From: a virus
Taxonomy: Duplodnaviria > Heunggongvirae > Uroviricota > Caudoviricetes
Strand: one strand, 5' to 3'
DNA: 23,401 bases
IMG/VR virus record: IMGVR_UViG_2667528074_000003
Location: 1-23,401 of that record
Shown here: piece after piece, positions 5,547 through 22,468 of the stretch
Layout: each line of letters opens with the position of its first letter
Position numbering within the stretch: position 1 is the first letter of the stretch
Position numbers and translations under genes: made by a program
Notes under the pieces: generated by a model
Database searches by the model: none
What the model was told of the DNA's origin: nothing
Seen by the model: the letters and a program-made list of their open reading frames with translations, nothing else

Positions 5547-5560
5547 CCATCAACGAAAAA

Positions 5561-5576
5561 GCCCACATCTGTGGGC
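5561..5576. terminator. hairpin after the autotransporter stop (GCCCACA..TGTGGGC) flanked by A5 and T3
   Basis: Inverted repeat 5561-5567/5570-5576, 15 nt after stop 5544-5546; short T tract, so terminator function is uncertain. Confidence 0.4.
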
Positions 5577-5706
5577 TTTCATGTCACCAGGAGCCGCGGC
5601 TCCTTTGCGTATCCTTTTATGTCTCTTCACCGTCTGGTCGGTGTCCTGCTGAGACTGCTAACTTCCTGTTTTTATTGGTGTTGTCCTTATACCGTCCAAT
5701 CATGAT

Positions 5707-5865: not shown

Positions 5866-7038
5866 TTACCGGGCTGCAGAAATCGCCGTTTTTCCATCGT
5901 ATTCTGCAAGGTAAGAGCCGTAATGTCTGAACAGCATTTCCGGTCCTTTGTGCCCCATCTGACCAGCCAGCCAGAACAGGTTAACGCCCTGGCTAATGTG
6001 CCGAGTGGCGAACGTATGGCGTGTCTGGTACGGATTGCGATAACGTACACCAGCCTTTTTAAGGGTCGGTACCCAGGCTTTTTTGCGGATCGCATCTGCG
6101 TTTGCCCAGGGAGCTCGAGTTTTCGGATCGCTGAATATGAAGTCGCTTTTTAGCGCCGTGTAGGGCTTTTGTGCCTGAAGAGCTACCAGCGCTTCGTTGT
6201 TCAGTTGTACTTTGCGAGTACCGGCTTTTGTTTTGGTACTTTTGATTACCCCGACTACGCTTGCAGTCTGGACATGTGCTGTGTTGCCGATGAAGTCTAT
6301 ATCTGTCCAGCGCAACGCGCACAATTCCGAGCTGCGTAGTCCGGTATTAAAGGCGAAACGAAACAGATTTTGCCATTCCGGGTAATGACAGGCGTCATAG
6401 ATTGCTGCTGTCTCTGCTGGCGTAAAAGGATCGACCTCGTAATCATCACTGCCTGGTGTGTTGTCCAATACGTGATACCGGCTGGCGCTGACCAGCGTGA
6501 CAGGATTTATTGTTAACAAACCATCGGTCACCGCTTCATCTATGGCGCTGCGCAGAAATGAAAGATTATTGCGGATCGTTTTCAGTTTTGTTTTTCTGCT
6601 GGCGATCCAGTTTTTGAGTACTGCAGGTGTCAGTTCTGATACATGAAATTTATGCAGTGCTGACAGTGCAGACAGGCATTTTTCATACCCTTTAATTGTC
6701 GATGGCGACAGGTTACGGTTCTGGCAGATAGTCAGGTATTCATCCAGGTAAGATTTTATATTTTTGTTTTTTTTCACTCCCCCGAACAGCTCCAGCTTTT
6801 GGGAGTTGGGGAAGTATTTTGCATATTCGAAGGTACCACCGATAATCTGATTTTTTATTTCTCCCAGCAGACGCTCGGCATACTTCACACCGCGCGCGTT
6901 TACTTCCATTCTGGAGAGGGGCTCCCGACACAGAACCCCTTTATATGTAAAAGTGATAACCAGAGTGCTACCAGTTTTATGCTGGCGAATAGTTACTCCT
7001 CTAGGGAGAGATAATGATCCTTGTTCTTTCTTGCCCAT
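5866..7038 (-). CDS. int: tyrosine site-specific integrase (lambda Int family)
   Basis: 390 aa; C-terminal catalytic region with RHTFATRHISQG and LAGQMGHKGPEMLFRHYGSY (conserved His/Arg and catalytic Tyr); GGAG RBS; adjacent to att core and transcribed toward it. Confidence 0.9.
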   Translation of the reverse strand: MGKKEQGSLSLPRGVTIRQHKTGSTLVITFTYKGVLCREPLSRMEVNARGVKYAERLLGEIKNQIIGGTFEYAKYFPNSQKLELFGGVKKNKNIKSYLDEYLTICQNRNLSPSTIKGYEKCLSALSALHKFHVSELTPAVLKNWIASRKTKLKTIRNNLSFLRSAIDEAVTDGLLTINPVTLVSASRYHVLDNTPGSDDYEVDPFTPAETAAIYDACHYPEWQNLFRFAFNTGLRSSELCALRWTDIDFIGNTAHVQTASVVGVIKSTKTKAGTRKVQLNNEALVALQAQKPYTALKSDFIFSDPKTRAPWANADAIRKKAWVPTLKKAGVRYRNPYQTRHTFATRHISQGVNLFWLAGQMGHKGPEMLFRHYGSYLAEYDGKTAISAAR

Positions 7039-9236: not shown

Positions 9237-9818
9237 TTAATGTGTCACTGGTGCTTCTGGTATACCATGAGTATTCAGATCGTGAATCATTTCATCCAGA
9301 AGGAGTTCAAGCCCTTCGCGCCCCATAGCAGAGACAATGAAGCCATTATCAGGATCTGCGATGAGCATTTTTTGATAGAGAAACAGAACTCGCCCCATGC
9401 CTTCATCTTCGCCATATTTTTCAATAAATCCCCATTCGACATGGTTTTGCAGGGCAATGCGAAGTGGCCCCGGGTATATACTCATACAACCATGCTTTCC
9501 CTTATAAATAACTGCGTGATCTGTGGTTCCGTTATCGTTAGGGATATCAATGGTACCGTTCTTGTTTTCCTCTTCACTGATAAACGTCGCCACATACAGC
9601 CAGCGCCATTGAGCAACCTTCATATCGACTGAAAATCTTCCCAGGAATCCGGCATCATCGGCTTCTGCAATACATTGCATGATTCTTAAACCGTGCCAGC
9701 ATGGATTGTCGTACTCACCATCATTAAGACGCTGTACGGCCTCAACATAATCAATGGTTGTACTGTCAATTTTTATGCCATGAGCTGTCGCTTCTGGTTT
9801 GAATTCAAAATTGTTCAT
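9237..9818 (-). CDS. hypothetical protein (193 aa), downstream member of an overlapping two-gene unit
   Basis: ATG 9818 preceded by AAGGAA; start overlaps the stop of the upstream 72-aa ORF (ATGA); no recognisable domain. Confidence 0.6.
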   Translation of the reverse strand: MNNFEFKPEATAHGIKIDSTTIDYVEAVQRLNDGEYDNPCWHGLRIMQCIAEADDAGFLGRFSVDMKVAQWRWLYVATFISEEENKNGTIDIPNDNGTTDHAVIYKGKHGCMSIYPGPLRIALQNHVEWGFIEKYGEDEGMGRVLFLYQKMLIADPDNGFIVSAMGREGLELLLDEMIHDLNTHGIPEAPVTH

Positions 9819-10033
9819 AATGTTTGTTCCTTTGCTGGTGGAATAATCGTGTAACCCGCTCTTTTTGCCATCCACAGAAATGTATCCATGCAACCAACGA
9901 ATTCATTATCCAACAGATGTTTTGAGTAAATCACTTTCCCATTTTCAATGGTCAACAACACTCTTACTTTTTCGTGTATTACCCCCCCCTGCTCAGGCTC
10001 ATTCTGCATTTTATTTCGTGCTGATGTCTCCAT
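9815..10033 (-). CDS. hypothetical protein (72 aa), upstream member of the overlapping two-gene unit
   Basis: ATG 10033 preceded by GGGAGA at 8 nt (the track start at 10048 is an alternative); stop overlaps the next start. Confidence 0.55.
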   Translation of the reverse strand: METSARNKMQNEPEQGGVIHEKVRVLLTIENGKVIYSKHLLDNEFVGCMDTFLWMAKRAGYTIIPPAKEQTL

Positions 10034-10231
10034 TATTTTATCTCCCATAAGCCTTGCGCAAATACAGGTTGGCTATATGAAGATAAGAATCTCCATGTTG
10101 TGCAATGAGGCAGGCAGTTTTATACGATGCCTTATTTTTCAGGAAAGTCATAACTGAGTTCCCTCTATGAATAAAAGTTGTAACAATTCCCGGCGATAAA
10201 ACCGTAATAAACGTTCAGGGCATATTGGTTG

Positions 10232-10597
10232 TTATTGCGCTAATTCTTTTTCGGCAGCAGCATTTGCATATTCACATGCAAAATTCAGAATTTCGCTGCC
10301 AAGTGTTTTTGTTTCATGATTACTGGACATATGTAATACCTGTGTTGCATGCAATAAATGATAAACATTGACCGCAAATGAATCAGGTTCCAGACAAATG
10401 CCTTCATAATCATCTTGCTGTGAGGTTGTTTCTGTCATTGTTCCCGAAGTACATGCGAACCTGTTTTTGACAATACTCTTTCCTCTAATCACTATATCGG
10501 CAACATCTATTGCTTTTATAACCTCCGGGAGAAATTCCTGGTTTGTATAATCAAACTCATCAACACAGAGAACGGTTATGTTTTCGAACTTTTTCAT
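10232..10597 (-). CDS. hypothetical protein (121 aa) whose C-terminal ~65 aa are paralogous to the N-terminal domain of the upstream 153-aa HTH protein
   Basis: ATG 10597 overlaps the stop of gene 10594-11055 (ATGA). Shared block: DSFAVNVYHLLHATQVLHMSSNHETKTLGSEILNFACEYANAAA versus DSFALNIANLLSAVRTFHLLDCARSKELGIEVMEFIHEYALSAA. Confidence 0.6.
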   Translation of the reverse strand: MKKFENITVLCVDEFDYTNQEFLPEVIKAIDVADIVIRGKSIVKNRFACTSGTMTETTSQQDDYEGICLEPDSFAVNVYHLLHATQVLHMSSNHETKTLGSEILNFACEYANAAAEKELAQ

Positions 10598-11200: not shown

Positions 11201-11890
11201 CTAACCAAATCTGTTTATATTGAATGGTACTGATGAGATCACTTTAGACTGGATATAAAGCAGAGCTAACCCCTCTTTTTCGATGCTCCATGGTTGATAA
11301 TTGGGGTTATCAGATAACACCATGATTTTGCTTCCAATTTTTTGAAGTCTTTTCACGTAGCATTCTCCATCAAAACAAAATGCATAAATGCCATCGCCAT
11401 CAAAATAAGTTACTGTCTTATCAAGAAAAAGAAGGTCGCCAGGTGAGATTGTGGGAGCCATACTGTCTCCTCTGGCGTTGCCTATTTCTATATTTTTAAA
11501 TGCTCGGTTTCCAACAAGACGACGGGCATATTCAGGATCAAGTTCTATTGAGCGTACTACATCTATAAAGTCTCCGCGGACATGGGTCCCATTACCGCAA
11601 CTAAATTCAACGTCAAGTACATTAAACACGACGCTATCTGTTCTTGCCTGATGTTTCTCTTGCGAAGAGAAGGTTGGTGAGGTGTCTTCACCTAAGAACC
11701 AGGATTGTGGATAACCGCTAATCTCTGATAACTGCGCAAGCTTATCGCTCCGTGGAAATGTTTTTCCTGTGGTCCAGTACTGCACTGATTGCGCACTCAC
11801 CCCCAGCTTACGGGCCAGCTGAGCCTGAGTCCATCCTTTTGCTTTCAGCATTGCGGCTATTCTATTTTCTGTGTTTTTGACGTTCTTCAT
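11201..11890 (-). CDS. cI: CI-type prophage repressor (N-terminal HTH plus C-terminal S24/LexA-like autopeptidase)
   Basis: 229 aa; HTH WTQAQLARKLGVSAQSVQYW; S24 motifs GDSMAPTISPGD (Ser nucleophile) and CYVKRLQK (Lys); divergent from a cro-like gene. Confidence 0.85.
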   Translation of the reverse strand: MKNVKNTENRIAAMLKAKGWTQAQLARKLGVSAQSVQYWTTGKTFPRSDKLAQLSEISGYPQSWFLGEDTSPTFSSQEKHQARTDSVVFNVLDVEFSCGNGTHVRGDFIDVVRSIELDPEYARRLVGNRAFKNIEIGNARGDSMAPTISPGDLLFLDKTVTYFDGDGIYAFCFDGECYVKRLQKIGSKIMVLSDNPNYQPWSIEKEGLALLYIQSKVISSVPFNINRFG

Positions 11891-12023: not shown

Positions 12024-12296
12024 ATGAAAGGAAATGATTACGACGAACTTCGTGCATTAATTGCGCAAAATGCCATAGCGCGAAATCTTGGTGTGACACC
12101 GCAAGCGGTGAATCAGTGGTTTTCAAAAAGCACAATTCCTGCTCGTTTCGTTTTACGGGTATGTGAGGTGGTTGCATGGAAGGTTACGCCTCATGGCTTA
12201 AGGCCAGATCTTTACCCTCACCCTGAAGATGGAATTCCTGATTCGTTACGCAAAACATCAAATCCAAGCTTAGCGCACACGGGGGAGGGGAGGTAA
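12024..12296 (+). CDS. cro: Cro-like small HTH regulator (YdaS/Cro type)
   Basis: 90 aa, divergent from cI; HTH-like LGVTPQAVNQWF; RBS GGTGA 6 nt upstream. Confidence 0.7.
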   Translation: MKGNDYDELRALIAQNAIARNLGVTPQAVNQWFSKSTIPARFVLRVCEVVAWKVTPHGLRPDLYPHPEDGIPDSLRKTSNPSLAHTGEGR

Positions 12297-12302
12297 GGAA
12301 GT

Positions 12303-12431
12303 ATGAACGAAGAACGAATCGAATGCATTCTTGAGGCCATATCAGCCCTTACCGACGAAGAGATTCAGGAGGCAAGGACTGTTGCTGAAAAAACAGCCTT
12401 AGCTTTGGGATTTTCGGTTAATCCTGGTTGA
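12303..12431 (+). CDS. hypothetical small protein (42 aa) translationally coupled to cro
   Basis: Not in the ORF track; ATG 12303 lies 6 nt after the cro stop with RBS AAGGAAG; translation MNEERIECILEAISALTDEEIQEARTVAEKTALALGFSVNPG. Confidence 0.4.
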   Translation: MNEERIECILEAISALTDEEIQEARTVAEKTALALGFSVNPG

Positions 12432-12645
12432 TGGAGTTATCCAGAACGGCAGCGATGTATTCACACATATCCTGTCCTCGCTCCCTCTGCTGTTGCGGCT
12501 GACTTTTCAGGTTTTTAATTAACTCCATTCCGGATGCTGCGAGCTTTATTCGCTCTTGGATGGGAAGGGACGACAGCAATAAACCAAGTAATGCCTCAAG
12601 GCCGTCTAGCTTGGTTTCAACGCTGAATTTAGTTGTATCAGTCAT
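12418..12645 (-). CDS. hypothetical protein (75 aa) convergent with and overlapping the 3' end of the cro operon
   Basis: ATG 12645 preceded by AAGGAAA and by an extended -10 promoter; helical, charged sequence; overlaps the 42-aa ORF by 14 nt. Confidence 0.45.
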   Translation of the reverse strand: MTDTTKFSVETKLDGLEALLGLLLSSLPIQERIKLAASGMELIKNLKSQPQQQRERGQDMCEYIAAVLDNSINQD

Positions 12646-12678
12646 AGGTAATTTCCTTACTGGTTGTGTGAGAACTCC

Positions 12679-12715
12679 AGTATACCACCGAGCCTGAAGT
12701 GGTTAAAAGACAGGC
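12679..12715 (-). promoter_or_regulatory. leftward extended -10 promoter (TGGTATACT)
   Basis: Minus strand TGG-TATACT about 25 nt upstream of the RBS of the 75-aa ORF; weak -35 (TTAACC). Confidence 0.45.
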
Positions 12716-12940
12716 AAATTGAAGAGGCTAACCATGACTCCAGAAGAATTTATCTGCAAACACATAACGGAAAAGCTGGTGGCGGAGGGCTTCCCTGAAA
12801 TTGTTGCCAGGGGGGGGCATGCCGGGGACTGGATTACTACCGCCGTAGCTCGCAGGCCAGCCGCAAAGGAGCGATGTTTAATGATTGCTTGTTTCGTGCG
12901 CGGCAATGGGCACTTGGTCAGACAAATGTTACTGAGCGAA

Positions 12941-12984
12941 AGGAAAAGAAAAAGCCGGGCCGGATTAAGGTGGGCCAGCCCGGC
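12941..12984 (-). terminator. rho-independent terminator for leftward transcripts
   Basis: Minus strand GCCGGGCTGG..loop..CCGGCCCGGC (10 bp including one G-U) followed by TTTTTCTTTTCC. Confidence 0.4.
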
Positions 12985-13129
12985 CTGTCCTGACTTACCT
13001 TTGGAATCAACCTTCAAGGAGCTGTTCCATGATAAACGCCCGATTAATCACTGATCCTGACCGCCAACCGGAGGGCATTAATCACCAGACTGGAAAAGGC
13101 CTCAATCATCTGACTAAAGGACATTGATC

Positions 13130-13441
13130 ATGCTTAACATTAGCAGCACTCAAAAATTAGTCAACCCTTCAGATCCTGTTGGACAAATTCCGGTCGAACA
13201 GTGGTACAGAAGAACGTACGTGGTTTCAGAGTACGCCCGCACTTATACCGAGACAATTATCGGAAAGGCCAAATGCCCCTGTTCCGCAGCTGTGAATGGT
13301 GCGATGGCAATACGTAACGCCAATCCTTCGGTTTTATCCATCCGTTTTATAAGTATTGAGCAGCTTTCTCCTGAAGAAGGAGAGGCCAGCGAGCGCGCCC
13401 TTAACGCCTGGTTTGAGAAACATCCTGAGGAGATTGAATGA
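13130..13441 (+). CDS. hypothetical protein (103 aa) coupled to the downstream Rha-like gene
   Basis: ATG 13130 (the track TTG at 13124 is less likely); stop overlaps the ATG of gene 13438-14148. Confidence 0.5.
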   Translation: MLNISSTQKLVNPSDPVGQIPVEQWYRRTYVVSEYARTYTETIIGKAKCPCSAAVNGAMAIRNANPSVLSIRFISIEQLSPEEGEASERALNAWFEKHPEEIE

Positions 13442-14148
13442 TGAACACCGCAATTTTTAACGACAAAGTATCCATGACCAGCGTTGAAATCGCAGAGCTG
13501 GTTGGAAGTCAACACGGCAATGTCAGAATATCAATAGAGCGTCTGGCAAAACGCGGGGTGATTCAACTTCCTGCAATGCAAAAAGTTGAGAACGAACAAT
13601 CATTTAGCCAAAACAAATTCACAAACGCATATATTTTCGAAGGCGAACAAGGCAAACGCGACAGCATCATTGTCGTCGCACAACTTTGCCCGGAATTCAC
13701 TGCCCGCCTGGTAGATCGTTGGCGCGAACTGGAAGAGCAGGTGCGCAAACCAATGAGCGAAATCGAAATGGTTGCCGCGATGGCTCTTGAAGTAGTTCGT
13801 CAGCAAAAACGCCTCGACAAGATGGAAGAAAAAGTTAGCCACGTTGCCGAAACTGTCGAACAAATCAAAAGAGGCACCATACGCGATGGTTATGCAGGAT
13901 ACCGTCAGCTGGTGGCGAAAACAGGTATGTCAGATGCTAAATGCCGCAATCTGGTGAACGCATATCAGATCCCTACCGACACCCATGAATTTATGACGCC
14001 AGACGGATTATTGTCTCGTCGCGCGATTGTTGCAGTAGAACCCTTCATGTTTGCTTTTCATCGCATGATGAGTGAAGCAGAACCACGAGGTACTCGCTGG
14101 TATCACCCGAAAATGGGCCTGTTTCAGGCGCTGGGCTGGCAGGTGTAA
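13438..14148 (+). CDS. phage regulatory / antirepressor-like protein with N-terminal Rha-type DNA-binding region
   Basis: 236 aa; N-terminal MTSVEIAELVGSQHGNVRISIERL ... RWRELEEQ resembles the N-terminus of phage Rha/antirepressor proteins as I recall them; C-terminal half unassigned. Confidence 0.65.
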   Translation: MMNTAIFNDKVSMTSVEIAELVGSQHGNVRISIERLAKRGVIQLPAMQKVENEQSFSQNKFTNAYIFEGEQGKRDSIIVVAQLCPEFTARLVDRWRELEEQVRKPMSEIEMVAAMALEVVRQQKRLDKMEEKVSHVAETVEQIKRGTIRDGYAGYRQLVAKTGMSDAKCRNLVNAYQIPTDTHEFMTPDGLLSRRAIVAVEPFMFAFHRMMSEAEPRGTRWYHPKMGLFQALGWQV

Positions 14149-14362
14149 TTATGCTCACAGGTAACACATGCAAGTACTCAATCGCTGGTTCCGCGATGGC
14201 AGAGGGCGTCGCGTCCACGTTATACACTGGGAGTCTGAAACACAGCGGGTCATTTACCTGCGTGATGGTTATTCGCATGAATGCTTCAGTCCGTTGTGGT
14301 TGTTTCGTCGTGATTTTGTGGAGTGTGAAGCGCCGCCAGAGTGACGGCGTAATGGTGGAAAC

Positions 14363-14671
14363 TTACACGAAGCGGATCTGGAGTTTTTTTCCTGTTGCGC
14401 GGGCAAATTTTTTCAGTGTGGAAAATGATGGTCCACTGACACCTGACGCCAGATTACTTTCCATTCTGCTGATGACAGTTGCTTTGGTTCCCATACGCTC
14501 AGCGATCTCAGCTTGGGTTAAACCAGCTTCTTTACGTGCTGCCAGCATTTCATCAAGCAACGCAAATTCGTCGGCGATGGCGTCGTATTCTGCTTTAAAA
14601 GCTGGATCCTCCATCCATTTATCAGCCATTTCATCATGTGTAATGGTTGGCGGATTACGTTTACCAGTCAT
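14363..14671 (-). CDS. HigA-like antitoxin (XRE HTH)
   Basis: 102 aa with HTH GLTQAEIAERMGTKATVISRMESN; immediately downstream of and overlapping (11 nt) the toxin gene, the toxin-first order typical of HigBA modules. Confidence 0.8.
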   Translation of the reverse strand: MTGKRNPPTITHDEMADKWMEDPAFKAEYDAIADEFALLDEMLAARKEAGLTQAEIAERMGTKATVISRMESNLASGVSGPSFSTLKKFARATGKKLQIRFV

Positions 14672-14990
14672 GCTTTACCTCCTTCATTCTGGTTTCAGCT
14701 TTTTGGCGTTCGGCTGGTGGGGTTTTCTGGGTCTTCTTGATGAAACTATGCAGCATGATGATGCGTTTTCCTGCCAGGGTGCAGTAAAAGACGCGTGCGA
14801 TGCCATCACTACCTTTAATCCGAAGCTCGAAAAGCCCGTTACCGAAAGCACTGGTATGAGGTTCTCCGAGATTGCTGCCGTATACCTTCATGCGTTCAAC
14901 AAGATGCTGGTATCGGGCACGCATACTCAATGGAAGCTGGTCGACCTCCAGCCTGACCTCTTCACTGTAGTATTCGATAGTGTAGTTCAT
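14661..14990 (-). CDS. HigB/RelE-superfamily toxin (phage gp49-like mRNA interferase family)
   Basis: 109 aa; characteristic motifs NGLFELRIKGSDGIARVFYC and IMLHSFIKKTQKTP. Confidence 0.8.
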   Translation of the reverse strand: MNYTIEYYSEEVRLEVDQLPLSMRARYQHLVERMKVYGSNLGEPHTSAFGNGLFELRIKGSDGIARVFYCTLAGKRIIMLHSFIKKTQKTPPAERQKAETRMKEVKHDW

Positions 14991-14996
14991 GAGTTA

Positions 14997-15020
14997 AAAC
15001 ATAACAAAATGGTTATGTTT
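14997..15020. promoter_or_regulatory. palindromic operator candidate upstream of the toxin gene
   Basis: Perfect 9-bp inverted repeat AAACATAAC-N6-GTTATGTTT ending 7 nt before the toxin start codon; overlapped by a TTGTGC-17-TATGTT promoter-like element on the minus strand. Confidence 0.4.
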
Positions 15021-15671
15021 GCACAATATATTGATTCTGCAATTTCGGGACGTTACACTGTTCCAGCACCTTATAAAGCGGGTGCCGGGATTTGCACCCC
15101 GGAATTGCATACGGCGATATATGACGCGCCAGCGTCTTTTTTATCGTCCGCGCTCACGCACGCCAGAATTATGGTGGGCTGGGTAGGGGAGCCGAAAGGC
15201 TCGCCGGTTTCCGTATGCGCCGGTAGTGCAAACCCTGTTCAGTCCGCCACCAGCGAGATTTGCACCTCCGGTGGTGGAAGTTATCCATTGCATACGGAGG
15301 CTGCCATCATGGCTACAGTCCCAACTTCCCCATTCCTCAAAATTGAGATCGTCAACGGTAAGGCCGTTATTTTTTCCCTGCATGTTGCCTGCCACTTCAA
15401 GCGCATGCACCAGAACATCGTTGACAAAATCGAGTATCTGAACTGCTCGCGTGAATTTTTTACCCGCAATTTCATTCCGGGTACTTATCACATCTATGGT
15501 GACTCTCTGCGTGGTTATTACATCACCCTTGATGGTCTGATGATGCTTCAGCTTGGGTTAAGTCTGCGCACAATGCGGTACTACGAGAGCTGTATTGATG
15601 CATTCCATGAAGCTGAAACCGTCCAGGTACATTCCGCTTTCCGTCGTCATCAACGGGAGGTGCACCTATGA
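15009..15671 (+). CDS. Rha-domain phage regulatory protein, tandem paralog 1 (start uncertain)
   Basis: C-terminal ~110 aa carry a Rha-like winged-helix pattern (SLHVACHFKRMHQNIVDKIEYL ... YYITLDGLMMLQLGLSLRTMRYYESCIDAFHEAE). ATG 15009 has no SD; an internal ATG at 15309 has a GGAGG RBS. The frame stays open upstream only because it is antisense to the TA genes. Confidence 0.55.
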   Translation: MVMFAQYIDSAISGRYTVPAPYKAGAGICTPELHTAIYDAPASFLSSALTHARIMVGWVGEPKGSPVSVCAGSANPVQSATSEICTSGGGSYPLHTEAAIMATVPTSPFLKIEIVNGKAVIFSLHVACHFKRMHQNIVDKIEYLNCSREFFTRNFIPGTYHIYGDSLRGYYITLDGLMMLQLGLSLRTMRYYESCIDAFHEAETVQVHSAFRRHQREVHL

Positions 15672-16333
15672 TCCGCTACCTGAATATTGATTCTGCACTT
15701 TTGGAACGTTACACTGTCTCTGCACCTTATAAAGCGGGTGCCGGGCGTGGAAACCCGAAATTCAATATAGAGCACAACCGCGCTCATGCGGTTTTTTCGT
15801 GTCATGAGCATTGCTACGCCCAAATTATGGTGGGGCGTGCAGGGCCAACTTCGGTTGGGCCGGGTTCTATGTTGACCGGTATTTCCACCCCTGTACGTCT
15901 CACCACCTATATGGTCGTGGAAAGCCTTGGTGGTGAGTTCTTTGAATTCAACATAGGGGCTGTCACCATGACTACCACCACTACCCACCCATTCCTCAAA
16001 ATTGAGATTATTAACGGTAAGGCCGTTATTTTCTCCCTGCATGTAGCCTGCCATTTCAAGCGCATGCACCAGAACATCGTCGACAAAATCGAGTACCTGA
16101 ACTGCTCGCGCGAATTTTTCACCCGCAATTTCATACCGGGTACTTATCACATCTATGGTGACTCTTTGCGAGGTTATTACATCACCCTTGATGGCCTGAT
16201 GATGCTTCAGCTTGGGTTAAGTCTGCGCACAATGCGGTACTACGAGAGCTGTATTGAAGCATTCCATGAGGCAGAAACCAGCGTGAATCATACCGCTTTT
16301 CGCCGTAATCAATGGGAGGCGCGCCATGTGTAA
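15668..16333 (+). CDS. Rha-domain phage regulatory protein, tandem paralog 2
   Basis: 221 aa; ATG overlaps the stop of paralog 1 (ATGA) and is preceded by GGGAGGTG; the C-terminal domain is nearly identical to paralog 1 with mostly synonymous differences. Confidence 0.65.
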   Translation: MIRYLNIDSALLERYTVSAPYKAGAGRGNPKFNIEHNRAHAVFSCHEHCYAQIMVGRAGPTSVGPGSMLTGISTPVRLTTYMVVESLGGEFFEFNIGAVTMTTTTTHPFLKIEIINGKAVIFSLHVACHFKRMHQNIVDKIEYLNCSREFFTRNFIPGTYHIYGDSLRGYYITLDGLMMLQLGLSLRTMRYYESCIEAFHEAETSVNHTAFRRNQWEARHV

Positions 16334-16559
16334 TAACCATTATTCAGACACCTCTGTTACGGTAATTAAAACCCTGATGGATGCACTGATTGACATCTCT
16401 GTTATCGCAGATATGGCGCATAAACACGCCACCAGTGAAACAGAATATGCCGGGGCTGTCGTTCCTCACTCACTGGCTGTTATGCAAATTAGCGCCGATC
16501 AGGCGCTGGAAACAGCCAGCAAAATGCTCATGGCTGATGTGCGGGAGGTACATCCATGA
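16326..16559 (+). CDS. hypothetical protein (77 aa)
   Basis: Start overlaps the end of the upstream gene by 8 nt; part of the coupled operon leading into the replication genes. Confidence 0.5.
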   Translation: MCNNHYSDTSVTVIKTLMDALIDISVIADMAHKHATSETEYAGAVVPHSLAVMQISADQALETASKMLMADVREVHP

Positions 16560-16780
16560 TTCGCCGCCTCGTTAATTCTCTGTATCACCGATACAACTGT
16601 TGCCCCCGTGTGGGGCAGTGGATTGCCACCAGCAACGGTCACGTTCTGCGGGTTTGCCTGGTCAGCACCGAAAGCCAGAAAGTTGTGTGTGAATTACTGG
16701 GGCGTAACTACACCATTAGCTATCCGTTGATGGCGTTTCAGTCCGGAAAAATGTTTAAACGCCTGGGAGGTGCCGTGTGA
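16556..16780 (+). CDS. hypothetical Cys-containing small protein (74 aa)
   Basis: ATGA overlap with the upstream gene; several Cys (CCPRVGQW, CLVSTESQKVVC); stop overlaps the GTG start of the replication initiator. Confidence 0.5.
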   Translation: MIRRLVNSLYHRYNCCPRVGQWIATSNGHVLRVCLVSTESQKVVCELLGRNYTISYPLMAFQSGKMFKRLGGAV

Positions 16781-17754
16781 GCCGGTTAATTAAATTGCTT
16801 GATCGCCCGATTGCTTACAATCCGGCTTTTGCAAAGCTGAAAGCAGGAAAAGTGCGATCGGGGCCGGTTGCGGCTGTTTTTCTTTCACAGCTTGTCTACT
16901 GGCATAACCGTATGGATGGTGGCTGGATGTATAAAACCCAGTCCGATATTTTAGCAGAGACAGCATTAACCCGCGATGAGCAGGAAACTGCGCGTAAGCG
17001 CCTTGTTGCGCTTGGTGTTCTGGAAGAAAAGCTACGTGGTATTCCTGCCATTATGCATTACCGGATTAATACTGAACGGCTTGAAGCACTGCTGATTGAA
17101 CAGGTAAAACCTGATACGAAGGCTGACAGCAACGAGTCCAGCGCCGCAAATATCAAGAATGTGGGAACGCCGCAATCTGAAGCAGGGCAATACCGCGAAC
17201 AAGTTTGTGGAAACCCCGCAAACTGTGGTGTGGAAACACCGCAAACAGTGATGCGGGATCACCGCAAACCGTCATGTGGAAACCCCGCAAACATTCATAC
17301 AGGAGATTACACAGAGAATACTCATGAGATTACTCATGAGACTAAAAACACTATTGGCGCATCCGCTGACGCGTCTGCACCAGCGCGTTCTGCCCGACAA
17401 GAATATTCACCGGAATTTGAACAGGCCTGGCAGGAATACCCCAAACGTGCTGGTGGTAATTCCAAGTCGGCAGCCTTTAAAGCCTGGAAAGCCCGAATCA
17501 GGGAAGGTGTGACACCCGAAACCATGCTTGATGGCGTGAGGCGTTATGCCGCCTGGGTACGTGCCACAGGAAATACCGGCACACAATTCGTGAAGCAGGC
17601 CGCGACGTTTTTTGGACCCGATCGTCACTTCGAAGATTTCTGGCAACAGCCAGCCGCTCCCGGAGGTGGGCGACAGCGACAGATAGATATCCTGTCTGGT
17701 CTTGGTGCCATGTCTGACGAATTCGGTAAATCCAGTGACAACTTAACATTCTGA
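16777..17754 (+). CDS. replication initiation protein (lambda O-like), with origin iterons inside the coding sequence
   Basis: 325 aa; GTG start with GGGAGG RBS; N-terminal winged-helix-like region similar in pattern to lambda O; central linker encodes six phased direct repeats; followed by helicase loader and helicase genes. Confidence 0.75.
   Translation: MSRLIKLLDRPIAYNPAFAKLKAGKVRSGPVAAVFLSQLVYWHNRMDGGWMYKTQSDILAETALTRDEQETARKRLVALGVLEEKLRGIPAIMHYRINTERLEALLIEQVKPDTKADSNESSAANIKNVGTPQSEAGQYREQVCGNPANCGVETPQTVMRDHRKPSCGNPANIHTGDYTENTHEITHETKNTIGASADASAPARSARQEYSPEFEQAWQEYPKRAGGNSKSAAFKAWKARIREGVTPETMLDGVRRYAAWVRATGNTGTQFVKQAATFFGPDRHFEDFWQQPAAPGGGRQRQIDILSGLGAMSDEFGKSSDNLTF
17170..17292. 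repeat. replication-origin iterons: six direct repeats with core CCGCAAAC at exact 23-bp spacing
   Basis: Core 8-mers at 17170, 17193, 17216, 17239, 17262 and 17285 (variants CCGCAATC, CCGCGAAC); best copies TGTGGAAACCCCGCAAAC; followed by an AT-rich stretch (17293-17345). Confidence 0.7.
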
Positions 17755-17764
17755 GGTGACAGCG

Positions 17765-18643
17765 ATGATGACGTTTAACCTGCGTGAACAACAAACAAGA
17801 CTACAGGCGCGGATGGATGAGTTACGGTCTGAGATGGCGTTTGCGGAGACTGGGGAAAAACCGTGGCCTTATCGTTCCTGCCGGATGTGTGAAGGTCGCG
17901 GATATTGCGAAAAACATGGCGAATATCACACGCATATTCTGGTGTGGGGGGATCGTAATGGCGAGGACAGAGAGAAAATTTCACACTGTCCTCACTGCCT
18001 GAGTGCTGAAATCAACGATGTGATTATGGAGTTGTCGTCCCTGAAGGCGGAAGAACTGACTGATAACGCCGGAATTGCACTGCGTTTTCGTGACTGTGAG
18101 TTTGAAAACTATCAGGAGATTAATCCTGACGCAGCCAGAAATCTTGCTGCCTGTCGTCGCTATGCCGAAAACTGGGCGGATGTTCTGGAGAATGGCACAA
18201 ATCTCGTGCTGACTGGCAGTTGTGGCACCGGTAAAAATCACCTGGCGGTTGCGATGGCAAAATATGTCATCCGCAACTATCTCGCCAGTGTTGAGATCAC
18301 CGACGTGATGCGCCTGACCCGGGCTGTGAAAAACTGCTGGCGGAATGACAGCGAAAAAACTGCGGATGAGGTGATTGAGCATTATGCATCACTGGATCTG
18401 CTGATTATCGACGAAGTGGGTGTCCAGTTTGGTAGCGCGGCGGAAATGGCCATTCTTCAGGAAATTATCAATGCCCGGTACGAAAGTATTCTGCCAACCA
18501 TCCTGATCAGCAATCTTTCACCGAAGGCGTTGTGGGCATACATCAGTCCACGTATTGCTGACAGGGTTACGGATGGTGGCCGTAACCTGTTGTCCTTCAA
18601 CTGGCCCAGCTACCGGGCACATACCGGAGGTGTGGCAGCATGA
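17765..18643 (+). CDS. DnaC-like helicase loader (AAA+ ATPase) with N-terminal Cys-rich region
   Basis: Walker A LTGSCGTGKNHLAVAMA (DnaC-type GTGKNHL), Walker B LLIIDEVG; CxxC...CPHC cluster near the N-terminus; RBS GAGGTGA before ATG 17765 (track GTG at 17756 is an alternative). Confidence 0.85.
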   Translation: MMTFNLREQQTRLQARMDELRSEMAFAETGEKPWPYRSCRMCEGRGYCEKHGEYHTHILVWGDRNGEDREKISHCPHCLSAEINDVIMELSSLKAEELTDNAGIALRFRDCEFENYQEINPDAARNLAACRRYAENWADVLENGTNLVLTGSCGTGKNHLAVAMAKYVIRNYLASVEITDVMRLTRAVKNCWRNDSEKTADEVIEHYASLDLLIIDEVGVQFGSAAEMAILQEIINARYESILPTILISNLSPKALWAYISPRIADRVTDGGRNLLSFNWPSYRAHTGGVAA

Positions 18644-20040
18644 TCAGCCAGAACAGTCCGGTCTGGCGTAACGATGATCTGGAAGGTGCTGTTATTGGCG
18701 CATTCTTTTTGCGTGGGGCAGATCCGGAAGTGATGGATATTCTGGCCACACTACCGGCGGACGTTTTTTCTGTACGACCGTACCGGGATATCTACACAGG
18801 CATCTGCAGACAGGCCCGTGTGTCCGGCGTGATTGATCCTGTGCTGTTGTGCAATGAGATGCCGGAACTTGCCCCGGTGATTACTGATACCGGGCGTAAA
18901 ACCTGGGTGAAGTCATCTCTGGAACACTATGTTGCAGCACTGCGACGCAATGCCGCACTGCGTGATGCAGAAAAAACACTGGCCGAAGCATTGCAGAAAT
19001 TACGTGATGCGCATACCTGTGAAGCAGCTGAAGATGCCCTGAAGGATGCTCAAAACATGATGGTCTCATTGTCGACCGAAAAGGGCATTATTCAGCCTGT
19101 ACACATTGATGATGTACTTCCGGAGGTGGTTGACCGTGTTGAATGCCGGAATCAGGGGCTGGAGAAATCCAGGACGTTGATGACCGGTATTGATGAGCTG
19201 GACGCAAAAACAGGAGGCATGGAGCCCGGCGACCTGATATTCATCGCGGCGCGCCCTTCGATGGGGAAAACAGAACTGGCGCTGGATATCATCGACAAAG
19301 TGACTGAACAGGGGCGCGGTGTTCTTCTGTTCACAATGGAAATGGCGAACATTCAGATCGGTGAACGCATGGTGTCTGCTGCCGGAGGAATGCCTGTATC
19401 GCGCCTGAAATCTGTCTCTAACTTTGGTGACGAAGACTGGGCGCGTTTCATTAAGGGTGTGGAGCTGATGACCGGACGCAATATCTGGATGGTGGACCAG
19501 GCGAACCTGACCATTGACGAGATATGCGCAACAACGAAACACCATTTGATTAAACATCCGGAAACGGCACTGGTGGTGGTTGATTATCTCGGGCTGATAA
19601 AAACCCGAACCACGGGGCGTCATGACCTTGCCGTGGGTGAAATCTCAAAGGGACTTAAAGGCCTGGCAAAATCCGGTGGTTTTCCGTTGATTGCGCTGAG
19701 CCAGCTTTCCCGCAGTGTGGAGTCCAGACCAAATAAACGTCCCATGAACTCAGACCTGAAAAATTCCGGAGAAATAGAGGCGGATGCTGACATCATTCTG
19801 ATGCTTTACAGGGATGAAGTGTACAACCCGGATACGCAGGCCAGGGGCATCGCAGAAATTAATATCACGAAGCAACGTAATGGTTCTCTGGGGACGATTT
19901 ACCGACGTTTTTATAACGGACATTTTCTGCCCGTAGACCAGGAAAGCGCACAGGTTCTTTCTACACCAATGCAGCCGTCCAGACCGCGAAGATACAGTAA
20001 CAAACGAACTGACAGCAGTAAGATGGAGCGTTTCTTTTGA
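18640..20040 (+). CDS. DnaB-family replicative helicase
   Basis: 466 aa; DnaB-like N-terminal domain; Walker A ARPSMGKTELALDI; ATGA overlap with the DnaC-like gene. Confidence 0.85.
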   Translation: MISQNSPVWRNDDLEGAVIGAFFLRGADPEVMDILATLPADVFSVRPYRDIYTGICRQARVSGVIDPVLLCNEMPELAPVITDTGRKTWVKSSLEHYVAALRRNAALRDAEKTLAEALQKLRDAHTCEAAEDALKDAQNMMVSLSTEKGIIQPVHIDDVLPEVVDRVECRNQGLEKSRTLMTGIDELDAKTGGMEPGDLIFIAARPSMGKTELALDIIDKVTEQGRGVLLFTMEMANIQIGERMVSAAGGMPVSRLKSVSNFGDEDWARFIKGVELMTGRNIWMVDQANLTIDEICATTKHHLIKHPETALVVVDYLGLIKTRTTGRHDLAVGEISKGLKGLAKSGGFPLIALSQLSRSVESRPNKRPMNSDLKNSGEIEADADIILMLYRDEVYNPDTQARGIAEINITKQRNGSLGTIYRRFYNGHFLPVDQESAQVLSTPMQPSRPRRYSNKRTDSSKMERFF

Positions 20041-20051
20041 ACAACCAGACA

Positions 20052-20294
20052 ATGACTTTTACCCCTGAACAATTACGTAAACAGGCACAGGAAATGTTGC
20101 GACAAGCGGAACAACTGGAAAAAACAGGTGTAACAAAAGATACCATTCGTCGGGATATGGTTCCCGCGCTCAGAGAATTGATGCAGGCGAAACACCGTGC
20201 ACAAAAAGCGGTGGATGAGCTGGTGGATTGTGTGGCAGAGCTGGAAACCAAAGTTGGAAAGTTTGAAAAACTGGTGCATGAGGTGCTGCGCTGA
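20052..20294 (+). CDS. hypothetical small helical protein (80 aa)
   Basis: ATG 20052 (track TTG at 20037 overlaps the helicase stop); stop overlaps the ATG of the next gene; weak RBS. Confidence 0.45.
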
Positions 20295-20677
20295 TGCGTG
20301 ATATTCAGATGGTTCTTGAGCGTTGGGGAGCGTGGGTGGCAAATAATCATGAGGATGTTACCTGGTCATCGATTGCAGCCGGATTCAAGGGGCTTATTCC
20401 TTCAAAGGTTAAATCGCGACCGCAATGTTGTGACGATGATGCGATGGTTATTTGTGGTTGCATGGCTCGTCTGAAAAAGAGCAACAATGACTTGCATGAT
20501 TTGCTGGTGGATTATTACGTTTGGGGCATGACGTTTATGAGGCTGGCGCAGAAGCATAATTGCTCTGATGGATATATCGGGAAAAGGTTACAGAAAGCAG
20601 AGGGAATAATCGAAGGTATGTTAATGGCATTAGACATTTGCTTAGAGATGGATATTGATGTTACTAAGCTTAATTAA
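20294..20677 (+). CDS. late-gene antiterminator Q-like protein (phage 82 / DLP12 QuuD-like)
   Basis: 127 aa at the canonical position after the replication genes and before the late region; N-terminus [14 protein letters not shown] and Cys cluster ([12 protein letters not shown]) match my recollection of DLP12 QuuD; followed by a hairpin-rich leader. Confidence 0.6.
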
Positions 20678-20758
20678 TACGATTATTTTTTAATAAAAAA
20701 CGGGGCGTAAAAACACCCCCAAGATAAAGGGTAATATATAACAGAAAGTTTAGATAGT

Positions 20759-20840
20759 AAGAAGCAGGGCTCTAATGCTTCTTAAAGAAGTGGCTTGAGG
20801 GAGCCACTTATATGCTGAGAAGATAAAACCTTCTCAGCAT
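20759..20840. promoter_or_regulatory. cluster of three consecutive perfect hairpins between Q and the porin gene (candidate late-leader terminator region and porin terminator)
   Basis: Hairpin A 20759-20783 (8-bp stem), B 20788-20809 (8-bp stem), C 20812-20840 (11-bp stem ATGCTGAGAAG/CTTCTCAGCAT); C lies 17 nt beyond the porin stop on the opposite strand. Confidence 0.4.
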
Positions 20841-20857: not shown

Positions 20858-21961
20858 TTAGAACTGGTATACCATACCTACAGCAACGATATCGTCAGTG
20901 TTTACACCAAGAGCTTTAGTAAAGTCATTTTTGTCAAGCAGGTTGATTTTGTAATCAACGAAGGTAGACATATTTTTGTTGAAATAATAAGTTGCGCCAA
21001 CATCAACATATTTGACTAAATCCTGGTCACCAAAAATGCCAAGATCTTTACCTTTTGATTGCAGATAAGCAACAGACGGACGCAGACCGAAATCGAACTG
21101 ATATTGTGCAACAGCTTCGAAGTTTTGTGCTTTATTAGCCACAAAGTAATCTGCGAATTTAGTCATATTCTGGGTTTCTGAATAGGTTGTTGCCAGATAA
21201 ACGTTGTTTGCGTCGTATTTCAGACCTGCAGCCCAGACTTCTGCATTTTCGCCGGAAGCAAATACTCCTGGGAGAAGTTTACCCAATTTGACTTGAGTGT
21301 CGGTACGATCAGATTTCGCATACGTTGCACCAATGCCGAAACCTTCGTATTCATAGGTCGCAGAGAAACCAAAACCATCGCCATTGCCTTTGGTGTAGTT
21401 ATCTAAGCTACTACGATCATGATTATTCTTACCCTGGTACTGTGCAGCAAAATTCAGACCATCAACCAGACCAAAGAAGTCGTTGTTACGATAAGTTGCA
21501 ACACCAGTGGTACGACCAGTCATGAATACATCTGTTTGGGTCCAGGTATCTCCACCGAATTCTGGCAGGACGTCAGTCCATGCACCGATATCGTATGCTA
21601 CACCGTAGTTACGACCGTAATCGACGGAGCCGTAGTCACCGAATTTAAGCCCTGCAAATGCAAGACGGGTTTTATCTTTGGCTGCTCCCTGTTCTTCAGT
21701 ACGGTTTCCTTTGAATTCATATTCCCACTGACCGAAACCAGTCAGTTGATCGTTGATCTGAGTTTCGCCTTTGAAACCCAGACGAGCATAAGTTGTGTCG
21801 CCATCATTTGCATCGTTAGAGGAGAAGTAGTGCTTAGCATTAACTTTTCCGTACAGATCCAACTTGTTGCTGTCTTTATTATAAATCTCTGCTGCCTGAG
21901 CAGACATCGCCATCAGTACTGATGCAGCCACAGCAGAAATTGCCACCGTTAATTTTTTCAT
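20858..21961 (-). CDS. outer-membrane general porin of the OmpC/OmpF/PhoE family (phage-borne NmpC/Lc-like)
   Basis: 367 aa; signal peptide [23 protein letters not shown] then AEIYNKD...; near-colinear with OmpC as I recall it ([38 protein letters not shown], terminal MVYQF); opposite orientation to the phage operons; AT-rich upstream region. Confidence 0.9.
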
Positions 21962-22468
21962 CACGAACCCTTTTTTTTGAACTATTTTTAAAAAATGATG
22001 TCACTGCGCGATAAATATTCATCTAATCAATGTGGTTATTTCAAGAGTCAAGTTTAATTTAGTGATTGATAATATGATCAAGATCTCATTTATGCGCGTT
22101 GGTATAATTTGTTGATATTTTTGTGTAATGCGGAATTTAATTAATGAAATACATTATTTACTCATTTTTCATTGAAAAATAACAATGATGTATTTGATGT
22201 AATATGTGTTATTCGTATGTTTTGTTTTGTTATATTGCATTAACATTTGAGTGGCGTATTTGTGGTTTACGTACGTAAAAATTCAATTATGATGTTAAGA
22301 GTGGTTGCTTCGACTCCTTCCTTAAAACCGCCGTCGGGCTGTTTTTTGTACCCGAAAAACGGCACAGGACGTTAAACGTGCTGGTGGTTGCGAATACTGG
22401 TCTTTCAGCTTGCTGGCTTTTTCGACAAGAGTTATTGGTATGTCACGTTAACCAGAAAGGAAAAAGAC

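Follow-up and report, generated by a model that had tools for sequence, protein, structure and literature searches.

A Gp49-family toxin–antitoxin cassette lying antisense in a lambdoid prophage, with a predicted antitoxin operator and a probable leaderless toxin message

The virus record IMGVR_UViG_2667528074_000003 of IMG/VR (Caudoviricetes; positions 1 to 23,401, the whole stretch of 23,401 nucleotides (nt) analyzed here and called the window below) is a lambdoid prophage which encodes, on its minus strand and within the early-right operon, a small toxin of the Gp49 / Tad-Ata family followed by a helix-turn-helix (HTH) antitoxin. Judging from the sequence and from its comparison with relatives, we consider it likely that the two genes form a self-contained, autoregulated type II toxin–antitoxin cassette, antisense to the operon, with an operator of its own and a leaderless toxin message. 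An antitoxin dimer, alone or with the toxin, would bind a palindrome just upstream of the toxin gene and block RNA polymerase at an extended -10 element. The transcript would begin at the toxin AUG or 1 nt before it, so that ribosomes would initiate on a leaderless toxin message, a mode of translation that works inefficiently in E. coli; the antitoxin, well translated from its own ribosome-binding site AAGGAGGT, would be in excess despite the toxin-first order. On loss of the antitoxin, the freed toxin would cleave mRNA in the ribosomal A site, as solved relatives do. This suggests that a leaderless toxin cistron coupled with a strongly initiated antitoxin cistron is a simple answer to the need for antitoxin excess in toxin-first operons. 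What the comparison adds to an otherwise routine pair would be an operator with good support and a toxin message that is probably leaderless. The pair is made up of the following genes:

14661-14990, minus strand: toxin coding sequence, 109 amino acids (aa), Gp49 / Tad / HigB-like branch of RelE/ParE
14363-14671, minus strand: antitoxin coding sequence, 102 aa, an N-terminal segment and a C-terminal Xre-type HTH (residues ~44-98)

The toxin ATG stands directly 3' of an in-frame TAA, and the two open reading frames (ORFs) share 11 nt, ATGACTGGTAA. The toxin matches Pfam Gp49 (PF05973) over profile positions 2-90 of 90 (89.8 bits, cutoff 23.9; E 1.2e-25), the antitoxin matches Pfam HTH_3 (E 2.7e-11) and phrog_1373, and gp49 and gp48 of phage N15 are 45% and 32% identical to toxin and antitoxin, respectively. 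For both proteins, the closest solved relatives are two chains of the HigB/HigA complex 6AF3 of Streptococcus pneumoniae, with the antitoxin matching 6AF3_B; the toxin reaches this entry with E 1.3e-5 as a single sequence and with E 1.4e-16 as a profile built from 14 relatives, and the same profile finds HigB1 of the Mycobacterium tuberculosis toxin–antitoxin–chaperone (TAC) system at E ~1e-6 (1.2e-6 for entry 7NBU). An earlier note made from the letters alone had proposed a Gp49/HigB-type toxin followed by an HTH antitoxin, on the strand opposite to the neighboring phage genes: the ORFs and the Pfam matches agree with this, the homology search recovers Pfam Gp49 and HTH_3, the 6AF3 complex and the N15 pair alike, and the minus-strand genes do lie among plus-strand genes (12024-20677). 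Its family name HigB stands in the broad Gp49/HigB-like sense only, because the toxin matches no canonical HigB Pfam family, Gp49 being its sole Pfam match at E <= 0.01. The functions that the note brought up for such pairs in prophages, abortive infection and prophage stabilisation, would be guesses for this cassette, which may serve addiction, defence or nothing at all. The NCBIfam RelE/ParE model gave 20.9 bits, below its cutoff of 62.85, and PADLOC assigned no defence system, returning a partial match of toxin residues 50-99 to the NsnC C-terminus as well as generic HTH matches. By its sequence, the pair is thus to be read as an ordinary toxin–antitoxin of the known Gp49 / Tad-Ata ("HigB-like") branch of RelE/ParE, which standard annotation already recognises; NCBI labels close relatives as RelE/ParE toxins, and surveys of E. 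coli count Gp49-type toxins among the commonest toxin groups.

Distant relatives were collected in a scan of one genome per species, which retained relatives down to ~40% identity and yielded 67 non-identical loci from Gamma-, Beta- and Alphaproteobacteria, Chlorobi, Campylobacterota and other hosts. The toxin-first order with an Xre-HTH antitoxin is kept in 65 of these 67, and relatives from many phyla have the layout of promoter, operator and ribosome-binding site in common. In the window, this layout consists of the following elements:

15021-15026, minus strand: putative -35 element TTGTGC, its TTG kept in close cassettes with differing flanks
14997-15020: predicted operator, a perfect 9+9 inverted repeat AAACATAAC-CATTTT-GTTATGTTT with a 6-nt spacer, ending 7 nt 5' of the toxin ATG
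14998-15006, minus strand: putative extended -10 element TG-T-TATGTT, coinciding with the right operator arm
14990-14991, minus strand: predicted start of transcription, on the A of the toxin ATG or 1 nt 5' of it
14677-14684, minus strand: Shine-Dalgarno sequence AAGGAGGT of the antitoxin, strong and near-perfect, within the toxin 3' end and 5 nt 5' of the antitoxin ATG

Read along the minus strand, TTGTGC is followed by 17 nt, TG-T-TATGTT, the 7 nt TTAACTC and the ATG; the palindrome takes up the promoter spacer and runs into the -10. A count of perfect inverted repeats over the whole window (arms of 9 bp or more, loop of up to 10), with first-order Markov simulations as the null, gave four distinct repeats as compared with 1.5 per simulated window; as 0.0025 are expected per 40 nt, a palindrome just 5' of the toxin start would not be expected by chance. 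In 49 close cassettes on viral contigs, the core ATAAC-n6-GTTAT, the TTG and TATGTT are all kept, in at least four unrelated upstream contexts. In 38 of 59 loci, the centre of the repeat is 17 or 18 nt 5' of the start codon. The half-sites fall into classes which co-vary with the recognition-helix motifs of the antitoxins (L089-L168), for example TGATAAC with KSNISR and TGCTAT with TTQSAIAR, in counts made without correction for shared ancestry:

Half-sites ATAAC / GTTAT and TAACA / TGTTA: recognition helix T(K/Q)A(T/P)A(I/V)xR
Half-sites TTAAC / GTTAA: recognition helix T(K/Q)TPAIxR
Half-sites GTTATCA / TGATAAC: recognition helix xKSNISR (12/13)
Half-sites ATAGCA / TGCTAT: recognition helix T(T/S)(Q/T)S... 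or VSQPV..R

This co-variation suggests a cognate repressor–operator pair, whose prediction it fits, and would be hard to square with a site for another factor. The palindrome could alternatively act mainly as an RNA hairpin or terminator, or as the site of another phage regulator controlling the adjacent isrK–antirepressor promoter: it lies 10 bp from the putative isrK -35 and, as RNA, could fold into a 9-bp hairpin of -8 to -9 kcal/mol. However, the hairpin is A+T-rich and weak (z ~ -2), and is followed by no T-run on the plus strand and by a short one on the minus strand. Furthermore, the repeat goes with the cassette and not with isrK, given that phages with an empty site and prophages with an unrelated cassette in the same position have isrK but lack the repeat, and both its position and its co-variation with the helix recur in non-phage genomes of many phyla. 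We regard this alternative as quite improbable, and from the comparison the palindrome is almost certainly the binding site of the antitoxin. Autoregulation through an operator overlapping the promoter is what the comparison of loci points to, and the pairing of half-sites with helices may amount to a recognition code: as the operator would coincide with the extended -10, and half-site classes pair one-to-one with helix classes, the family would offer an orthogonal set of repressors and operators in which such a code is testable.

The window toxin has no Shine-Dalgarno sequence 5' of its start codon, and 63 of the 67 relatives likewise lack one of at least 4 nt at the toxin, whereas 58 of 65 have one at the antitoxin. 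The motif TGnTAnnnT ends 5-8 nt 5' of the toxin start codon in 44 of the 67, as against 0.45% of random positions in the same loci, and 39 of those 44 also have a TTG at a spacing of 16-18 nt. In the 49 close cassettes, the 7 nt between the -10 and the toxin ATG are free in sequence and constant in length, and never form a ribosome-binding site. The toxin message therefore probably starts right at the start codon, as far as the DNA allows this to be read. A mapped example comes from the cyanobacterial Gp49-type toxin gene ssl7039, for which genome-wide mapping placed the transcription start at the start codon (PMC4963859); the authors of that study state that every leaderless toxin–antitoxin locus of theirs was toxin-first. 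The paper on HigBA of A. baumannii gives no mapped transcription start. Leaderless genes are rare in E. coli (PMC8630535); paaR2-paaA2-parE2 of an E. coli O157:H7 prophage and lambda cI resemble the window pair in being prophage-borne with leaderless mRNA in E. coli (PMC8630535), but their leaderless gene (paaR2, cI) encodes a repressor and not a toxin, and the proteins are unrelated. Other Gp49 branches, such as N15 gp49 and relatives with strong consensus promoters, have a normal GGAGG leader, some of them still with a palindrome in the promoter spacer; because of these leaders, the leaderless layout is, from the sequences compared, a trait of the subfamily of the window toxin and not of Gp49 toxins at large. 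Within this subfamily it is conserved across phyla, and we found an earlier mention in the literature for the one cyanobacterial locus only. The earlier note had already described a perfect 9-bp inverted repeat at the toxin start, read it as an operator, and proposed a near-leaderless toxin mRNA. The repeat is confirmed at 14997-15020, the operator reading gains support from the invariant core, the fixed position and the half-site/helix co-variation, and the near-leaderless message from the absence of Shine-Dalgarno sequences (63/67) and the placement of the extended -10 (44/67).

A leaderless message presupposes that the toxin starts at its first ATG. It could instead start at M23, as a protein of 87 aa translated from a leadered mRNA, with the palindrome and the upstream ATG irrelevant to it. 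This is the form annotated in RefSeq as 264-nt toxin genes in POCJ13 and E. coli EC11, and a weak GAG lies a few nt 5' of the M23 codon. Yet residues 1-22 are kept across the family, with the motif MxYxIEYY and an invariant M1, and the changes shown within the first ten codons of close cassettes are mostly synonymous. The profiles likewise reach beyond the 87-aa form, as the Pfam Gp49 model requires toxin residues from 15 on and phrog_2523 covers the full length, residues 1-109; tblastn alignments start at toxin residue 1 in most of 160 loci. The 87-aa call also goes together with a long, and itself doubtful, "ash" call on the other strand. A start at M23 is thus very improbable. The 109-aa form is the correct one on present sequence evidence, because the N-terminus is conserved, the first-codon changes are mostly synonymous, the profiles run full length and the promoter lies directly 5' of the first ATG. 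Automatic annotation would then cut 22 residues from the toxin and place a doubtful "ash" protein over the toxin start and over RNA genes, which is relevant to catalogues of toxin–antitoxin systems. The RefSeq 87-aa toxin calls stand at 5337-5600 in L001 and at 9462-9725 in EC11 (L002), and in EC11 an "ash family protein" (9657-10475) begins within the antisense strand of the toxin. In two viral contigs (L049 and L050, position 2501) the toxin start ATG is mutated to ATA, and the remaining cassette is intact.

Toxin residues E55, R57, R66, F83, K85, Q88 and K89 fall, in the alignments, on residues which are catalytic or essential in the solved HigB toxins of S. pneumoniae and M. tuberculosis (HigB1), in the latter on E66, R68, R77, F93, K95, Q98 and K99; in HigB1 these are required for toxicity or proposed as catalytic, with counterparts in the S. 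pneumoniae protein (PMC9098466). The family alignment shows no variation at E55 and R66 and very little at the other five. Because the seven residues are kept, we take the toxin, by homology, to be an active RelE-type mRNA nuclease. The pair might instead be a non-toxic regulator pair of the phage, a Gp49-fold protein without nuclease activity plus a repressor, in the manner of M. tuberculosis HigB2/HigB3; non-toxic Gp49-type proteins are on record (PMC9098466), and in one related cassette (L060) the catalytic motif has degenerated within an unchanged layout. The retention in the window toxin of all seven residues, most of them near-invariant across the family, speaks against this, as does the lack of counterparts of F83 and K89 in the non-toxic HigB2 and HigB3 (PMC9098466), and we hold a non-toxic pair to be unlikely. 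In L060 (2501-2824) the toxin is 34% identical to that of the window, with R57->C, F83->V, K85->Q, Q88->A and K89->Y, and the ATAAC-n6-GTTAT operator and leaderless layout are kept; this toxin may be a non-toxic derivative.

Several points weigh against the reading of an autoregulated cassette with an active, leaderless toxin, in addition to the uncorrected ancestry in the helix–operator counts. The -35 is weak, at 3/6 consensus positions, and a sigma-70 consensus scan of 14100-15400 called no promoter; the scan missed it because of these three matches, and the promoter was identified by eye and then backed by the comparison with relatives. The NCBI pipeline calls the toxin of the close relatives POCJ13 and EC11 as 87 aa from M23. 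As to the protein, the window toxin differs from M. tuberculosis HigB1 at K58 and N73 (S47 and D62 by alignment), and the Gp49-type HigB2 and HigB3 of that species are non-toxic (PMC9098466). Ssl7039 cut RNA without ribosomes in vitro (PMC4963859), which makes the ribosome dependence of the window toxin uncertain. Finally, a single-sequence AlphaFold2 model of the toxin reached a predicted local distance difference test score (pLDDT) of 53.5 and was unusable.

Among known systems, N15 gp49/gp48 and Tad-Ata (Paracoccus pAMI2, SXT) belong to the same Pfam family, which takes its name from N15 gp49, and encode the toxin first and then an Xre-HTH antitoxin. Reviews place Tad-Ata (COG4679) in the RelE superfamily, with the toxin always first. 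Toxicity and stabilisation by Tad-Ata were reportedly described by Dziewit et al. in 2007, as reviews cite that work. N15 is a temperate phage, as here, but its gene 49 is preceded by an ordinary leader that includes a GGAGG ribosome-binding site, which the window toxin lacks, and its genes overlap by 1 nt instead of 11 nt. S. pneumoniae HigBA (PDB 6AF3/6AF4) has the motif E-x-R...R...F-x-K-x-x-Q-K in common with the window toxin, although its HigB chain is longer (141 residues). M. tuberculosis HigB1, solved bound to the ribosome in 7NBU (PMC9098466), is an A-site mRNA nuclease with a Gp49-like fold and a long C-terminal helix, to whose family the window toxin belongs by sequence; TAC needs a SecB-like chaperone, whereas the window pair has no third gene. 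Synechocystis Ssl7039/Ssl7038, likened to the window pair by description, is cyanobacterial and plasmid-borne, with a Gp49-domain toxin first in the operon which is a ribonuclease neutralised by the antitoxin (PMC4963859). Canonical HigBA (Proteus vulgaris Rts1, E. coli, V. cholerae HigB1) is also toxin-first, with an HTH antitoxin and a RelE-type nuclease, but its Pfam family differs, and Gp49-type and classical HigB toxins are little alike (PMC5906591).

The surroundings of the cassette, in the plus-strand early-right region 12024-20677 (YdaS/Cro-like, Rha, DUF4222, replication proteins, Q), include the following features:

14340-15027, minus strand: whole cassette, 688 bp, the insert relative to "empty-site" prophages
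14168-14344, plus strand: DUF4222 gene (Pfam DUF4222, E 2.7e-15), immediate left neighbor, its stop codon supplied by the first cassette bases
15031-15036 and 15054-15059, plus strand: putative isrK promoter TTGATT-17-TACACT, ending 6 nt 5' of isrK
15066-15142, plus strand: isrK small RNA (Rfam 63.7 bits, gathering score 50)
15167-15254, plus strand: C4 antisense RNA (Rfam 80.5 bits, above gathering score)
15722-15798 and 15823-15910, plus strand: second copies of isrK and C4 (tandem paralogue; Rfam, above gathering score)
11201-11890, minus strand: CI-like repressor
5866-7038: integrase

Phages Stx1_14040 and Stx2_14040 join window position 14339 straight to 15028, so that the net gain here is 687 bp. 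When the two flanks were searched together as one query, ~960 of 5426 complete E. coli genomes gave a match, with the junction unbroken in most of the spread sample listed, and nine genomes have an unrelated TumE / HVO_A0114 toxin–antitoxin cassette in the same slot and orientation. The HigB-like cassette itself also occurs between ren-like and ant/ninB genes in the Stx phages POCJ13, 75/02 and PhiR5_2, where it is antisense as well. Given the empty sites, the TumE cassette in the same slot and the HigB-like cassette at other phage sites, the comparison identifies the cassette as a mobile module recombining into phage early regions, and the slot as a small hotspot. Its borders, 14339/14340 and 15027/15028, fall between the end of DUF4222 and the isrK promoter (as also in L003, L087, L088 and L170). 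Both the HigB-like and the TumE cassettes supply the DUF4222 stop codon and share ~9 nt, A[G/A]TGACGGC, at their left ends; the slot borders showed no sign of a target duplication. The right border is 3 nt from the isrK -35, which stands back to back with that of the cassette at a distance of 4 bp.

The earlier note had placed the pair between antirepressor-like genes. In substance this stands, as two isrK–C4–antirepressor modules follow on the right; the immediate left neighbor, however, is DUF4222, with Rha beyond it further left, and the "ash/Rha" region on the right holds the isrK and C4 RNA genes. Both isrK-C4 copies lie within ORFs resembling "Ash/Rha" proteins, each with TTGATT-17-TACACT 5' of it and an antirepressor ORF 3' of it, the first of these being well initiated at ATG 15309. 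The layout matches that of Gifsy-1, in which the order is PisrK-isrK-orf45-anrP and isrK has its own promoter (PMC4825925). The Pfam "Ash" match may thus reflect the translation of RNA genes. An ATG at 15009, within the palindrome spacer, was considered as the start of an Ash protein and dropped: the Rfam isrK and C4 genes lie in that ORF, and its conserved "IDSA" codons are likely the isrK -35 region.

A plus-strand ORF (14151-15671, 506 aa) runs antisense across the entire cassette and into the "ash" region. The HigB-like cassette adds exactly 229 codons and no stops to that frame, with 11 and 13 stops in the other two plus-strand frames, and for the TumE cassette in the same slot the gain is 249 codons, likewise with no stops, as against 14 and 9 in the others; after synonymous recoding of both genes with E. 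coli codon usage, the probability of a stop-free frame is 0.022 for the HigB-like and 0.005 for the TumE cassette. The antisense strand might therefore be translated, with ribosomes on early-operon transcripts crossing the cassettes and either producing a fusion protein or protecting from Rho-dependent polarity, which we think rather unlikely; if true, cassettes would last within phage operons only with this frame open. Because the downstream "ash" part consists largely of RNA genes, a fusion protein is unlikely. Selection against untranslated antisense stretches, through polarity, may be at work. The frame is also open outside the slot, in L034-39 and in a 79%-identical TumE cassette in the nin region (L171), and has one to three stops in L013 and L019 (ash-slot cassettes), L021-33 and L040-51, and five and nine in two more distant homologues (L090 and L091). 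Selection of the 506-aa ORF in the ash slot only was rejected, as the frame is open elsewhere and closed in some ash-slot cassettes (L013, L019).

The cassette was found in only 19 genomes, in all of them on the chromosome, and the plasmid search returned a solitary antitoxin homologue only. The latter, at ~70% nt identity, is encoded at 1204-1512 of L169 (the Salmonella Infantis pESI-like plasmid pN55391; 141 Salmonella plasmids) with no upstream toxin ORF of at least 60 aa, and may be an orphan antitoxin. Elsewhere in the window, an OmpC-type porin gene (20858-21964, minus strand; Pfam Porin_1, E 8e-152) lies 3' of the Q antiterminator gene and on the opposite strand. The three further perfect inverted repeats (9 bp or longer) are at 5558-5579, 20758-20784 and 20813-20840, the last two of them flanking the region just upstream of this prophage porin gene.

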